Shown in pieces: positions 9,001 through 18,000 of a DNA stretch of 31,076 nt. The stretch is from Bacteroidales bacterium. Lineage in GTDB: Bacteria > Bacteroidota > Bacteroidia > Bacteroidales > CAIWKO01. The stretch lies in assembly GCA_035389045.1 (NCBI GenBank), contig DAOORA010000010.1, positions 62,001 through 93,076 of the forward strand, read 5' to 3'. A program made the position numbers. Within the stretch, counting starts at the first letter, position 1. Each line of letters starts with the position of its first letter.

Positions 9001-12000
9001 ATTATCCGACATATGACACTGAAAAATATGCTATTAATAAAGTATTGGTGTTACTGAAAAACTATCCTTCAGGGACTGTTGCGGCCAAAGATACTACCGA
9101 TGCTTCCGGATTTTTCCGTTTTAACAATGTTCCGTATGGCAGTTATACGGTTTACTATGATAAAATCACTGCCGACACCATGCAATGGGGAAATGATATA
9201 AATGCCATAGATATCTCGCAGCTTAAGTATTTAATAGCCAGTGATCCCGCAATGGATCCGTCTTTTTATTTCTCAGAAAAATACAAGCGGGCGGCAGATG
9301 TAGATAATAATATGGCACTTAATGCTATTGATGTCTCAAGGATCAAGGCTAAAATAGGATCGCCTTCTTCAGCCGTAAAGAACTTTCCGAAAGGTAACTG
9401 GCCCGCTTATGATTCTGTAGTCAGTATTTCCGGTTCCGACCTGAACCTCAGCCTGCCGGTCATCTGCTACGGCGATTTCAATGCGTCGAGTTTCAAATAT
9501 AAAGACTCTCTGTCAACATGGAGTATGGCCAAATCTATTGAAAATGAGATTATTATGAATTCGGATGAGTATATCACTGCAGGCCAGCCTTCCTGGTTTG
9601 AGGTGCCTTTGCGAATCAGCGATAAGATGAATGAGTTTTCCGCTATGGGGCTCGAACTGCATTATCCTGCTGATGATTACCGTCTGGAGCAAGCATCTAT
9701 GTCAAAGGGCGCAGGTAAAGATATTCCGGTTAAGATCAACCCGACGCTGGAGGAGATCATCGCCAGCGATGACGACCTGCTGGTAACGGATGAACATGGC
9801 GTGGTGAGAGTGGTTTATGCCACCACCAGCCATTTTGACGTGGCAGCCGGCGATGAAATGATGGTGCTCGGTTTTCGTGCCCTACGGAACCCGACTCAGG
9901 GTGAACTTGACTTTAACCTTTCGGGTACAGGTGTATTCGGAAACCGCTATGGTGAAGAGAATGATAATCTGTATCTTCTGAAGCCAAAGATATTTGTTCA
10001 GGGTGATAATCCGGAAGCCGGGTTTGAATTTATGGGATACCCCAACCCGTTTGGTGGTGATGTAAAACTCACGTACTATATTCCGGAACAGGGGAGTGTA
10101 AAAATCGAAGTCTATAACACGATGGGCAGACTGCTGGCCATACTGTTGAATGAGTACCGTGAAAACGGTAAACATACGGTTGAATTTTCGCCCGGTGATT
10201 TGCCCGCAGGGATGTATATTTTCCGGTTCGAATATAACGGACAGAATCTGTCTAAAAGTTTGACTTTAAAGATGTTACATTAACCCTATCAAACTTGTGA
10301 GTTATTGGAATGACGAGTGGTTTTTATTTGCTCAGACCGAGGTAACAGACCTTAAACAACTTTTTTAAGCACTTGAATAACTGATATCTCCCGTTGTGCG
10401 GGTTTTGTGCTACATGCCCTCCTGCGGAGTAACTTCGACAACAACGCACATAAAAATAATCCCTTTTTCCCGATTCCTTCAAAATAGTATAGTAACTTTG
10501 ATTTCATCATTAATTATGATACCAGCACATACTTATTTAAAATTGATGAATATGCGTGATTATGTGATACTAATAAACAAGGTATGCAAGCCTGGCCATA
10601 AAATTCCACGGATACAAAATATAGTTTTCAGCCCATTTTTTAATATATGATTACCAGACAAAATATTTATTCACTCTTAATATGCACTATTATGACAGGA
10701 TTATTTTCTTGCGCTACTATTCCTAAGGGGGCAGTAGCGGTAAAACCTTTTAATAAAGAAAGATATCTTGGTAAATGGTATGAGATTGCCAGAAAAGATT
10801 TTAAATATGAACGGGATTTGAGTAATACCACAGCAGCATACTCTTTAAACAACAACGGAACTATAAAGGTTGACAATCAAGGATATAATACAAAAAAAGG
10901 AGAATGGACTCAGGCAATTGGTAAGGCAAAGTTTGTTGGAGAAGACCATATCGCTATGCTTAAAGTATCATTCTTTGGACCCTTTTATTCCGGGTACAAT
11001 GTAATCGCCATTGATGATGAGTACAGATATGCTCTGGTTGCCGGAAAAAGTCTCAAGTATTTATGGATTTTGTCCCGCGAGACTAACATACCTGTGGAGA
11101 TAAAAGATAAATATCTTAAGATTGCCGAAGAAATCGGATATGATACAGCAGATCTGATATGGGTTGAGCACGGCAAGCAGAAATATCGGCAGCCCTAAGG
11201 GTGCCACCTATAAGTTGTAGTAATGATAAAGTTTTCAAGATTTTTTCAAACCATTAGCCACACAAGCAATAGTGTCCGCTACAAGGTGCTAACAATACAT
11301 TGTTAATTGTTCCGCCGTTCAGACAAAACACGATCCACCAGTTCAGATCCACCTCATCAGGCTGAAATCCTGACGGTGGGCGAGCAGGTTATTTTTAGGG
11401 AACAATCTGAATGCATAATCAAATACGCCTATCCTGTCCGTGGGCATTTCGATAGTAAAGGTCACCATGTTGTGATGGGTTTCGGTGATTTTTAATTCGT
11501 GTCTGTAAATGATTTTATTTACGACATCATTTACTTTTTGCCCCATGACCATTTCGATACCCACATCGTTTTTGTTCAGTTCGTTTAATTTAAGTTTTAT
11601 CTCCGCATGAAATTTTTCGCCCAGTCCCAGGGGCTTTTTATTTGAATCAATGGTGGTTACGGAGACAACTTCGATGCTTTCCCACGCCCTGAGGATTTTT
11701 TGTTTCCAGGATGCCAGTTTACGGGCATTCAGGTAATTATCATGATTTATCAGCATTATTCGCTTATAAAGCGGGTTGTAGAATTTGCTCCGGTAATCGT
11801 CAAGCATACGTTTTGTCGTGTACTCGGGCGCAATATGTGCAATGGTATTCTTGATTTTCTGCACCCATTTTACCGGAACATTATTCTTGTTGCGGTTATA
11901 AAACATCGGAGCTATTTCGTTTTCAAGGATGTTGTAAATAGTCACTGCGTCAAGAGCATCCTGTGCATCCTGGTTCTGATACGTACGTTCTTCTTTCAGC

Positions 12001-15000: not shown

Positions 15001-18000
15001 GGCATGCCGTTTCCGGCAATGCATCTTCCAAGTACAGTAGCATGGGTGGTAAATACAGTAGCGATCTGAGGCGTATTGTCCTTAAGCGGAAGCACTCCGG
15101 CTCCGGTGAGCCATTCGTGAAAATGGGCGACAATATGGTCACTGGCTACGACATGATAATCGTAAAAGCTGCGGATGACCACCGATGCGGCGATACCGAA
15201 GAGGGCGGGCTCTATGTAATCCCATTGTCCGTAAATGGAATCAACCTGGTATTTTTCCCACAGTCGGGATAGTATTTCATTTTTTGTGGCAAAATATTGT
15301 GTGAAATCCACCAGGATGACCACGGGTTTACCTGCAATGTTCCAGTTTCCGATCTTAAATTTCAATCCTTTGCTCTCCGCGTCTTCCCTCCAGGATCTGT
15401 AAAGGAATTTGTCTTCAATAAAGTCGGGGTTTTCACGTGTTTCCTTCCAAACATCGGGCCCGATCAGAATGTAATTATTTTTCAGTGTCTCAGCAATGCC
15501 GGCAGCTTTGCTGGCGATTACCGTATAAATCCCGCCTACTTTGTTGCATACTTCCCAGCTTACTTCAAAAAGATAATCGGGCATTAAAAGATTTTTGCTA
15601 TCAGTCATAAATATAAATTTTTTTGAGAGGGGCAAAATTACTGTTTTTTTAGCTTTGTCATGTGAATTAAATTGTTGTTTATATCCCGCTGAAGAATTGA
15701 ATTATTTTGTATACCGGTCAGGATGTTTCTTTCTGTTTTTTTCATAAAAACCTCAAAACATTCAATAAAAATCATTTAATTTGTACAATAAAAAATTTGC
15801 GATGATCACATTAAAAAAGGGCGATAAGGCTCCTGATTTTTCGGGTTATGATCAGGATGGTAACAGATTGAGCCTGAAAAGTTTTTACGGTAAAAAAGTA
15901 GTTTTGTATTTTTATCCAAAGGATAACACCCCAGGTTGTACAGCCGAGGCCTGCAACCTGCGCGATAATTACAGTATGCTGCTTGACAAGGGTTATGCAA
16001 TTATTGGTGTCAGCGCCGATAGCCCAAAATCGCATAAAAATTTTATTGCAAAATATGATCTGCCATTCCCTTTGATTGCCGATACCGACATCACTATATG
16101 CCGGATTTACGGAGTCTGGGGACCGAAAAAATTTATGGGACGTACCTTTGACGGCATCAACCGCACCACATTCCTTATTTCTGAAGAGGGGGTTATCGAG
16201 GCCGTTATCACTAAAGTAAAGACAGGCGATCACACGATGCAAATCTTAAATGAACTGAATAATAAATAATATTAAATCTTATACATTATGGCAAAAGAAA
16301 CAGTAGACAAGAAGGAAGAAAACTTAAATAAGGAAAAGCTGAAAGTGCTGCAGCTTACGCTCGATAAAATCGAAAAATCGTATGGCAAAGGCGCTATTAT
16401 GAAATTGGGAGACCATCCGACAGAAGATATTGAATATATATCAACCGGCTCCATAGGTGTTGATGTTGCACTTGGGGTTGGCGGCTTTCCCAAAGGCAGG
16501 GTTATTGAGATATACGGTCCTGAATCATCAGGAAAAACAACGCTGGCGCTTCATGCTATAGCGGAGTCACAAAAAAAAGGCGGTATAGCTGCCTTTATTG
16601 ATGCGGAACATGCGTTCGACAGTTCCTATGCCCGCAAGTTAGGCGTTGACATCGAAAACCTGCTCATCTCTCAGCCTGATAACGGGGAACAGGCGCTTGA
16701 GATCACTGAAAACCTGATACGTTCCGGAGCCATCGACATCATCGTGATTGATTCGGTAGCTGCCTTGACACCCAAAAGTGAGATTGAAGGCGAAATGGGT
16801 GATTCGAAAATGGGTTTGCAGGCAAGACTGATGTCGCAGGCCTTGCGGAAGCTGACGGCTACCATAAGTAAAACACGCTGTTGCTGCATCTTCATTAATC
16901 AGTTACGCGAAAAGATAGGTGTCATGTTTGGAAACCCTGAAACCACCACAGGCGGTAATGCTTTGAAATTCTATGCCTCTGTGCGTGTAGACATTCGCAA
17001 AGTTTCCCAGATAAAAGAAGGCGACAGCGTTACCGGAAACCGCGTACGGGTGAAGATTGTGAAAAACAAAGTGGCTCCGCCCTTCAGAACTGCTGAGGTG
17101 GACATCATTTATGGCGAGGGATTCTCTAAAATGGGTGAAATAGTTGATCTGGGTGTGGAGAAGGAAATAGTCAAGAAAAGCGGTTCCTGGTTCAGTTATA
17201 ACGAGACCAAGCTCGGACAGGGCAGGGATGCGGTAAAACAGTTACTGCTCGATAACCCCGAACTGTGTGATGAAATAGAAGCCAGAATCAGGGAAAAACT
17301 AAAATAATTTTTTTGCGGACATAAACCGGAGTTGAAACTCACGGTACTGGTTTAAGAGGGTATGCAACATATCGGAATTTACGGTAATTATCTGTTAGTC
17401 AATTATATATGTGTGAAATGACTTTGTTTTACGGTTAGGTAAATATTGCAAAACGCCATCATGCATAGGCAGGTTGGTTCAACACTTATTTGAAAAAAAT
17501 TTGCTCTAAAAACCTGAATGGCAGGATGTTATTCCAATACAAATAATTTAAATTTTCAAACTATTCTTCAATGAAAAACATGCTGAACATTGTCCTGACG
17601 TTGTTAATGTTTATGATTTTTGCATGTGGAAACAATCATAAGCCGGGCATGGCGGATGCAGGTACAGACTCGTTACCCTCCGACCTGACCGGTATTACAG
17701 GAAAAATCAACGCAGACCCCAAAAATGCTGAGCTGTATAACCAGCGGGCGCTTTTGTATCTCGAAAAAAATGATCCGGATAAAGCCCTGAAGGATATTAA
17801 CAAAGCCATCACTATAAATCCTGAAAATTCTTTGTATCTGAGAACATTGTCCGACATTTTTTTTGCAACAGGCAAGATAAAGAATTGTGAGGATGCCCTC
17901 AAAAAGGCCTGCGAAATTAATCCTGACGATGCCGAAGCGGTGCTGAAACTGGCCGAACTTTCCTTTTATATGAAAGACTATAAAAAGACTTTTGAATATA

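Follow-up and report, generated by a model that had tools for sequence, protein, structure and literature searches.

Proteins that carry both a glycogen phosphorylase and a glycogen synthase are catalogued in KEGG as K16153, 'glycogen phosphorylase/synthase [EC 2.4.1.1 2.4.1.11]' (PMC11017998; PMC8307300), and the class is only listed in the passages on it in those papers and in PMC11093988. The fusion goes unmentioned in the accessible parts of the review PMC11046441 and of PMC10395257 and PMC8950772, and a full-text literature search, spanning sources other than subscription journals and CAZy, returned no paper that describes or assays the fused enzyme. Other fused alpha-glucan enzymes include TreS-Mak/Pep2 and the GlgB-MalQ of a Neisseria species (PMC11046441). 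A free-standing relative of the phosphorylase, ScGP of Segatella copri, binds glycogen particles as a ring, and roles have been described for its residues K609 (PLP), H316, R507, R508, K513, Y512 and E278 (PMC12912991). Here we analyze a gene from a Bacteroidales bacterium, located in a window (the whole stretch of DNA analyzed) of 31,076 nucleotides. Its product carries an EC 2.4.1.11-type and an EC 2.4.1.1-type module on one chain, the architecture of K16153. Judged by this architecture and by the names of its homologues, the gene is an ordinary member of that known, catalogued family.

The fused gene and its two halves

The whole gene, a GT3 glycogen synthase joined to a GT35 alpha-glucan phosphorylase, occupies 11343..15608 on the minus strand and ends in the stop codon 11343-11345. 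The initial annotation described a single unbroken frame, and re-translation agrees: 11343-15584 reads without interruption as 1413 residues plus the stop. The domains listed there (Glycogen_syn, Glyco_transf_5, DUF3417 and Phosphorylase) were all recovered by Pfam. The reading frame and both enzyme halves are real. The start, in turn, needs correction. An alternative ATG at 15608, eight codons 5' of the ATG at 15584, yields 1421 residues and is more likely to be the true start, because the resulting N-terminus matches those of the close homologues P0003 and P0006 (both 1421 residues). Residues are numbered here from the ATG at 15584. Farther upstream, TAATTTTG (15633..15640, minus strand) is a putative promoter element that resembles the Bacteroidota -7 box, the consensus of which we take to be TAnnTTTG; it overlaps a TTG at 15635 chosen as the start by an automated ORF listing. 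A sigma-70 scan of 11000-16300 found no site 5' of the gene, and sigma-70 and terminator scans of this interval gave fewer sites than shuffled sequence, with none at the gene ends. The neighboring genes encode a lipocalin, T9SS-secreted metallophosphoesterases, an RHS protein, a peroxiredoxin and recA, and no functional context emerges from them.

The synthase half comprises residues 1-546 (13947..15584, minus strand), and profile, sequence and structure searches all place it in family GT3. Pfam Glycogen_syn (PF05693) matches with a whole-protein E of 1.1e-100 and a score of 338.5 bits (cut-off 27); the match falls into two stretches, at profile positions 1-341 and about 413-596, the first being residues 7-341. 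Glyco_transf_5 matches residues 8-243. The half aligns with the glycogen synthases of C. elegans, human and yeast by phmmer (E 6e-81 to 1e-72), and its predicted model matches their chains in Foldseek at 27-30% identity. The N-terminal K-x-G-G is present as K15 (15540-15542), G17 and G18, the Arg/Lys pair as R304 (14673-14675) and K310 (14655-14657), and the two glutamates eight residues apart as E433 (14286-14288) and E441 (14262-14264). We take these residues to have the catalytic roles that the glycogen synthase literature assigns in retaining GT-B glucan synthases. When 63 fused and eight split homologues are aligned, R304, K310 and E433 are invariant in 63/63 fused rows, with E441 retained in 62/63; K15 is likewise conserved across fused homologues. 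Signs of eukaryotic-type regulation were sought in the phmmer alignment, which with the human and nematode enzymes begins at residue 4-5 and stops at 537-546. The phosphorylated N- and C-terminal tails are absent from it, and one arginine (R508) is kept of the six in the glucose-6-phosphate cluster of eukaryotic glycogen synthases. On this alignment, the synthase half is a GT3 member and not of the eukaryotic, regulated type.

The phosphorylase half spans residues 572-1413 (11346..13871, minus strand). The earlier reading of a complete phosphorylase from about residue 571 holds: TIGR02094, 'alpha-glucan family phosphorylase', is matched over its whole length (NCBIfam; residues 663-1271, positions 1-600 of 600, 817.9 bits, cut-off 191.7), and phmmer aligns the half end to end with ScGP (PDB 9L6I; E 8e-265; query 2-843 against chain 19-851, to the last residue). 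Within it lie DUF3417 at 577-676 and Phosphorylase (PF00343) at 834-1182, the latter at 103 bits against a cut-off of 27, and a Thermococcales maltodextrin phosphorylase model of NCBIfam matches residues 576-1403. Foldseek superposes the half on ScGP with 50% identity and an rmsd of 2.1 over 629 columns. These matches assign it, as judged by sequence and model, to the clade 2 GT35 enzymes in complete form. In gap-free rows, the PLP lysine K609 of ScGP corresponds to K1168 (12081-12083), H316 to H875 (12960-12962), R507/R508 to R1066/R1067 (12384-12389), K513 to K1072 (12369-12371), Y512 to Y1071 and E278 to E837. K1168, H875, R1066, R1067 and K1072 are invariant in all 71 rows (63 fused and eight split), as are E837 and Y1071. 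Separate alignments, one of 19 and one of 111 sequences, bear out the conservation in both halves. At the distal AMP site, R583 of ScGP is replaced by K1142; the fused rows have lysine in 50, arginine in six and another residue in seven. Both halves look catalytically competent.

The two enzymes are joined by a linker of about 25 residues (547-571; 13872..13946, minus strand), delimited by the junction alignment and an AlphaFold2 model. It varies in length and sequence among homologues and contains no internal ATG. The model gives a pLDDT below 50 at residues 552-571 and no secondary structure at 545-576, and the linker is therefore predicted to be a disordered, flexible tether. Built from 110 homologues, the model spans residues 1-1200, with the C-terminal domain outside it, and has a mean pLDDT of 86.3 and a pTM of 0.56; the truncation at residue 1200 may be part of the cause of the low pTM. 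Foldseek found no PDB chain covering both halves (TMq at most 0.50).

Spread and history of the fusion

The initial annotation presented the fusion as new, peculiar to one family and absent from the other Bacteroidota sampled. Its family counts repeat exactly: 15 of 22 other genomes, drawn from all four genera, match uninterrupted to residues 1/2-1413 at 55-82% identity. A contig end truncates the match in three further genomes, where it nevertheless runs over the junction (G413, G406, G415); another three carry it in fragments (G401, G405, G411), and G403 gave none. The claim of absence elsewhere is reversed at the level of the order, where 74 of 101 Bacteroidales genomes, an even draw across the order, carry the fusion without a break at the junction, 66 with a frame of at least 1400 codons; the fusion is thus not peculiar to one family. 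The phylum-wide picture itself was reproduced in a draw of 400 other Bacteroidota, where, within the listed best 150 matches, an uninterrupted frame is limited to G131 and G243, and G031 and G299 have the halves in line but broken by one TAA. Only seven of those 400 genomes are labeled as the same order, and the phylum-wide draw behind the earlier picture barely sampled Bacteroidales. In a draw of 301 genomes, 145 of the 150 rows listed are uninterrupted and full length; of the best 80 species loci, 60 are uninterrupted and a further 13 extend over the junction; and the junction is spanned by 51 of the best 150 representatives at 50% identity. Outside Bacteroidales, the fusion occurs in Chitinophaga rupis and one Flavobacteriales MAG. 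Nor is it new: besides being common in Bacteroidales, it is already KEGG K16153 and named by JGI. All of the best 120 clusters at 90% identity carry PF05693 and PF00343, and 25 of them bear a JGI fusion-type name. The NCBI pipeline calls the fused proteins 'alpha-glucan family phosphorylase' alone, so that surveys by name would miss the glycogen synthase of about three-quarters of the sampled Bacteroidales genomes.

In Bacteroides and its relatives, the two enzymes are encoded by adjacent genes. A FastTree gene tree, in which the rows are best matches to a fused query, related rows are not independent and the root rests on one Chitinophaga row, groups all eight split rows in one clade (support 100) nested among fused rows. 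The fused Chitinophaga and Flavobacteriales rows fall outside this clade, and one change suffices to explain the pattern. Both genes of a pair share the same frame in six of the eight cases, with a single stop between them in three, and in the alignment the phosphorylases of the split relatives begin opposite about residue 554. Because they form one clade nested among fused forms, the split pairs look like the product of one secondary fission, and the fused form is common in Bacteroidales and probably ancestral there. Since lineages with split genes are viable, the covalent linkage is not essential.

Within the genome (96.3% complete), a profile search with PF00343 and PF05693 matched one gene each, the fused one in both cases. 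Other glycogen genes are a GH57, a GT5/GT4-like gene and a GH133 on contig C45, and a GH77 on contig C66. No GlgC or GalU model exceeded its cut-off in the genome, which returned generic nucleotidyltransferases only. The PF01704 (UDPGP) profile had no match in the genome, and the control for this search was equally silent.

Proposed working of the tethered enzyme

The initial annotation read the protein as a bifunctional enzyme that couples elongation and phosphorolysis. What stands of this reading is two complete enzymes on one polypeptide with conserved catalytic residues; the novelty and family specificity attached to it do not. We consider it probable that the protein is a bifunctional glycogen enzyme of the catalogued K16153 type, flexibly tethered, the sole GT3 and GT35 of its genome and ancestral in Bacteroidales, with the split pairs derived by later fission. 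The N-terminal GT3 synthase would add alpha-1,4-linked glucose from a nucleotide sugar, and the flexible linker would tether it to a PLP-dependent, clade-2 phosphorylase of the Segatella copri type. As the only GT3 and only GT35 gene found are one and the same, the enzymes of synthesis and phosphorolysis would be produced at a constant 1:1 ratio, and which of the two reactions prevails would have to be decided post-translationally, through the assembly state and metabolites (nucleotide sugar, Pi/glucose-1-phosphate, AMP). As a homologue of ScGP, the phosphorylase half probably assembles as a ring on glycogen particles and would in this way hold the tethered synthases at the surface of the particle. 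That both activities are held on one particle is plausible because ScGP binds particles in this way; ring assembly and AMP control are carried over by analogy from that free-standing enzyme. A fuller version of this scheme, possible yet tentative, takes the fusion to be the main glycogen enzyme of Bacteroidales and its ancestral form, arranged by way of the phosphorylase half in ScGP-like rings that wrap a glycogen particle and bear five flexibly tethered synthases. Growth and breakdown would be switched by metabolites and ring stacking without a change in expression, and the well-studied gut genera, with their split genes, would be a derived exception.

A different division of labor would have the two halves cooperate in synthesis, the phosphorylase binding glucan or making and extending primers from glucose-1-phosphate and the synthase elongating them. 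GT3 synthases require a primer, and we know of no glycogenin here. Eukaryotic GT3 depends on glycogenin, and the priming of archaeal GT3 is posed as a question (PMC11046441). ScGP, which binds glycogen particles, can also run in the synthetic direction, although its kcat there is reported as far below that of other phosphorylases (PMC12912991). The covalent link is retained in most sampled Bacteroidales genomes, which would fit such cooperation, yet a split clade exists and the sole GT35 gene of the genome must also serve degradation; we regard this alternative as rather unlikely. Less likely still is a precursor role, in which post-translational cleavage within the linker would release two ordinary free enzymes from the fusion. 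The linker is variable and predicted to be disordered, and the proteins of split relatives begin and end at matching positions; however, since its sequence is not conserved, there is no conserved cleavage motif, and the open frame in 74 of 101 genomes would be left unexplained if separation were the aim. That one half is a dead enzyme, retained as a glucan-binding or regulatory module, is very improbable: it has no specific support beyond a replacement of the synthase residue H156 in five of the eight split rows, confined to the split forms, and was rejected since every catalytic residue examined in either half shows little or no variation among fused rows. That the fusion results from an error of assembly or gene calling, for example a missed stop or frameshift, can be dismissed almost entirely, as the same open frame recurs in those 15 family genomes, in the 60 species loci and on complete chromosomes (G723:C1, G501:C1).

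Since the fusion is catalogued and common, it carries little weight as a discovery. The fused form is nonetheless a ready biochemical target, with a free-standing relative, ScGP, solved in 2026 and showing an unusual ring architecture. The nested split clade provides a natural experiment on what the covalent coupling of opposing storage reactions contributes.

Comparison with known systems

Proteins classed as K16153, or named by JGI 'glycogen phosphorylase/synthase' and 'phosphorylase/glycogen(starch) synthase', have the same two-enzyme architecture with no structural difference; the JGI-named homologues are 1408-1427 residues long and 52-57% identical over the junction region. K16153 is an annotation class for which the literature search turned up no underlying biochemical work. 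ScGP (PDB 9L6I, 9MA8, 9U3A, 9UTG; PMC12912991), a clade-2 glycogen phosphorylase, can be aligned with the C-terminal half from end to end, and the fused protein keeps its PLP lysine, H316, R507, R508, K513 and the proximal AMP-site residues. ScGP is a free protein of 852 residues, whereas in the fused protein the N-terminal loop runs on into the synthase. ScGP forms pentamers and AMP-induced decamers; R583 of its distal AMP site corresponds to K1142 of the fused protein.

The eukaryotic GT3 enzymes (human GYS1, 7Q0B/8CVX; yeast Gsy2p, 3NAZ/3NB0; C. elegans, 4QLB) share the family and fold of the synthase half. At their glucose-6-phosphate site, the protein has R508 and K504, with D501, E502 and E513 at three other positions. 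It also lacks their N- and C-terminal regulatory tails and is about 47-50 residues shorter between 340 and 366, where eukaryotic GT3 has extra helices, and part of the tetramerization insert is missing; tetramerization helices are mentioned in PMC11046441.

The adjacent, separate GT3 and GT35 genes, as in Bacteroides luti DSM 26991 (L075), encode orthologues of the two halves with order and orientation preserved, and the boundary lies at the linker. In the Bacteroides-type pairs, at least one stop codon and a new ATG 12-15 nt downstream part the genes. TreS-Mak/Pep2 and GlgB-MalQ likewise place two storage-pathway enzymes on one chain. These fusions join consecutive or cooperating steps, whereas the GT3-GT35 fusion joins the opposing reactions of synthesis and degradation.

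Reading frame, domains and surroundings of the fused gene

The fused gene occupies a single uninterrupted frame of 1413 codons plus stop at 11343–15584 on the minus strand, as the initial annotation had stated, and the stop-to-stop frame is longer still. An ATG at 15608 adds eight residues and yields a 1421-residue protein whose N-terminus agrees with those of the closest homologues, P0003 and P0006, each 1421 residues long; on this comparison, 15608 is taken as the preferred start codon, although residues are numbered here from the ATG at 15584. An alternative start from the ORF listing, a TTG at 15635, falls within TAATTTTG (15640–15633), which we take to be similar to the Bacteroidota -7 promoter box; this putative box is only a lead.

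Pfam and NCBIfam searches reproduced the domain rows reported earlier, with Glycogen_syn scoring 338 bits, DUF3417 at residues 577–676 and Phosphorylase at residues 834–1182; the NCBIfam model TIGR02094, ‘alpha-glucan family phosphorylase’, matched over all 600 profile positions (818 bits). Between the GT3 glycogen synthase (residues 1–546) and the GT35 alpha-glucan phosphorylase (residues 572–1413), residues 547–571 vary in length and sequence across aligned homologues. An AlphaFold2 model of residues 1–1200, built with 110 homologues, has a mean pLDDT of 86.3 and a pTM of only 0.56; pLDDT drops below 50 over residues 552–571, and no secondary structure is predicted over residues 545–576. The model, which stops at residue 1200 and leaves the last 213 residues outside, fits two well-folded enzymes that are flexibly tethered, and predicts no fixed interface between them with confidence.

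The genes adjoining the fusion in the window are unrelated to glycogen metabolism. Tandem calcineurin-like metallophosphoesterases, both with T9SS sorting tails, lie on the plus strand (6472–7728 and 7869–10283). On the minus strand, an RHS-repeat protein of 1620 residues with DUF6531 (684–5546) and an overlapping downstream frame that runs past the window edge (1–816) may form a polymorphic toxin cassette. The plus strand at 21037–29423 holds three repeats of a module in which a small protein of ~150–171 residues with a T9SS C-terminal sorting domain (21037–21489, 23424–23939 and 25767–26282) is followed by a Peptidase_S74 ‘chaperone of endosialidase’ protein of 408–476 residues (21564–22943, 23958–25184 and 27993–29423); a C1q-domain protein is encoded on the same strand at 27040–27864, and the products of this stretch look like secreted, tail-fibre-like proteins.

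Distribution of the fusion and the split pairs

The fusion is an already catalogued orthologue group and the majority form in Bacteroidales. Near-identical relatives are present in public databases, and a search with residues 400–800 returned 7939 proteins among 8000 candidates; the best 120 clusters all carry both PF05693 and PF00343, most at 1408–1430 residues. Names such as ‘glycogen phosphorylase/synthase’ (JGI), which is the definition of KEGG K16153 (EC 2.4.1.1 and 2.4.1.11), appear on 25 of these clusters and the NCBI name ‘alpha-glucan family phosphorylase’ on 16. The searchable literature yielded no study of the biochemistry or structure of the fused enzyme.

All distribution counts given here refer to samples, whose related genomes are not independent of one another. 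Scanning one genome per species uncovered at least 850 GT3 relatives, and classification of the best 80 loci gave 60 uninterrupted full-length frames, 10 that cross the junction and are cut by a contig end, three that cross it and are broken elsewhere (L009, L024 and L038), five adjacent split pairs (L012, L075, L079, L082 and L085) and two synthase-only loci (L010 and L047). Carriers include MAGs labelled Rikenellaceae, Lentimicrobiaceae, Tenuifilaceae, Marinilabiliaceae and Prevotellaceae, as well as Butyricimonas, Dysgonomonas sp. HGC4, Chitinophaga rupis DSM 21039 and a Flavobacteriales MAG. A draw of 301 genomes covered the order of Bacteroides luti, to which the window’s family also belongs, its genomes recurring there at identical coordinates; 272 had a match, and 145 of the 150 matches listed were uninterrupted and full length. 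Two Bacteroidales genomes have much longer open frames around the fusion, G464 (C77:53923–58146, 1891 codons) and G721 (C1:110143–114354, 1693 codons), which may mean that the protein is extended further at its N- or C-terminus or only that the stop-free flank is long.

The initial annotation had confined the fusion to one family among the Bacteroidota sampled. Its counts within that family were reproduced exactly, whereas the claimed absence from other Bacteroidota proved to be a sampling artefact: with a junction-only query (residues 440–700) and every row listed, 74 of 101 Bacteroidales genomes were uninterrupted across the junction, the frame reaching 1400 codons or more in 66 and being shorter in eight. 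Five genomes were in line with stop codons at the junction, 12 had separate matches or a phosphorylase match only (adjacent genes on one contig in six), and 10 had no match to this query. The phylum-wide picture was also recovered, with only two uninterrupted frames among the matches listed for 400 other genomes, but no more than seven of the 400 came from the same order. In a representative library at 50% identity, the junction was spanned by 51 of the best 150 matches.

The relation between fused and split forms was addressed with a 71-row FastTree tree comprising the window, 62 other fused rows and eight split pairs with their halves concatenated, leaving aside the 10 contig-cut, three broken and two synthase-only loci. 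All eight split rows form one clade (support 100) that lies within the fused rows, three well-supported nodes down, with the fused Chitinophaga and Flavobacteriales rows outside it, and a single change of state suffices on this tree. The two genes share a frame in six of the eight pairs; in the sister lineages L004 (3142–3160), L075 (2406–2426) and L005 (minus strand) they are separated by a single in-frame TAA, and in L004 and L075 a new ATG lies 12–15 nt downstream of it. Such a pattern would be expected after a nonsense mutation in an ancestor with the fused gene, and read-through of the lone TAA in these three loci would restore the fused protein. One secondary fission is likely, and is graded no higher because the root was assumed, the method is a quick one and a fused query served to select the rows by similarity.

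Active sites and glycogen genes of the source genome

Solved GT3 glycogen synthases from C. elegans, human and yeast align to residues 4–546 (E 6e-81 to 1e-72), and a fold search with the N-terminal half of the model retrieved the same chains at 27–30% identity. The essential residues of glucan synthases, which we take to be the K-x-G-G lysine K15, the pair R304/K310 and the glutamates E433/E441, are all found in the synthase half. An alignment of 63 fused and eight split relatives shows no substitution at R304, K310 or E433, and 62 of its 63 fused rows have E441; further alignments give the same conservation. A separate position, H156, is histidine in 61 of 63 fused rows and Asn or Asp in five of eight split rows, a change that, in this alignment, goes with the split clade.

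The phosphorylase half aligns end to end (residues 572–1413; E 8e-265, query 2–843 against chain 19–851) with ScGP, the solved free-standing Segatella copri glycogen phosphorylase (PDB 9L6I and others), and the fold match has 50% identity and an rmsd of 2.1 over 629 columns. In gap-free alignment rows, adding 559 to the ScGP number gives the position in the fused protein: the PLP lysine K609 corresponds to K1168, H316 to H875, R507/R508 to R1066/R1067, K513 to K1072, and the proximal AMP-site residues Y512 and E278 to Y1071 and E837. None of these residues varies across the 71 rows.

In the source genome, which is 96.3% complete, the Phosphorylase and Glycogen_syn profiles each match the fused gene only. 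One chain carries two complete conserved active sites and a flexible linker, and is the sole copy of each predicted activity in the genome. Elsewhere, contig C45 holds a GH57 gene, a gene with a GT5-type N-domain (429-codon frame) and a GH133 debranching-type gene, and C66 a GH77 gene adjoining GH13 genes. A whole-genome profile search for sugar-donor enzymes gave no GlgC or GalU model above its curated cut-off, and returned generic nucleotidyltransferases only (C8:35.7–36.4 kb, C64:18.1–18.9 kb, C6:95.2–96.1 kb and others). Outside the window, a 278-codon frame at C8:76153–76857 encodes a GT5 starch-synthase N-terminal domain only, in agreement with a remark in one passage of PMC11046441 that Bacteroidetes retain a fragment of GT5 GlgA.

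Synthesis and phosphorolysis would share one polypeptide at a fixed 1:1 ratio, so that direction would be set by metabolites and assembly state and not by differential expression. The bifunctional reading offered earlier is reasonable and its frame real; what does not stand is its presentation as a new fusion. That the halves cooperate in priming is unlikely, if still worth entertaining, and cleavage within the variable linker is improbable. There is very little to be said for a dead enzyme in either half, and an artefactual fusion is scarcely credible.

Comparison with eukaryotic synthases and ScGP

The six positions that we presume to form the glucose-6-phosphate arginine cluster of eukaryotic GT3 read D501, E502, K504, R508, S510 and E513 in the alignment. 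The synthase half lacks the N- and C-terminal tails of the eukaryotic enzymes, and is 47–50 residues shorter than animal GT3 between residues 340 and 366. Extra tetramerisation helices are ascribed to eukaryotic GT3 enzymes in a passage of PMC11046441. Judged from sequence, the eukaryotic regulatory apparatus is absent from the synthase half.

The ‘clade 2’ phosphorylases of Bacteroidota are defined by a further beta-sheet domain at the C-terminus (PMC12912991, PNAS 2026). ScGP forms an asymmetric pentameric ring around glycogen particles, and AMP occupies a proximal and a distal site, the latter leading to decamer stacking, upon which large substrates are kept out (PMC12912991). By analogy, assembly and glycogen binding by the phosphorylase half are probably like those of ScGP, in which case the synthase would stay at the particle. 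The distal AMP site differs, with R583 in ScGP replaced by K1142 in the fused protein; among the 63 fused rows, 50 have K here, six have R and seven have another residue, and among the eight split rows five have R and three have K. Because of K1142 at the distal site, AMP control of the fused enzyme may be different from that of ScGP.
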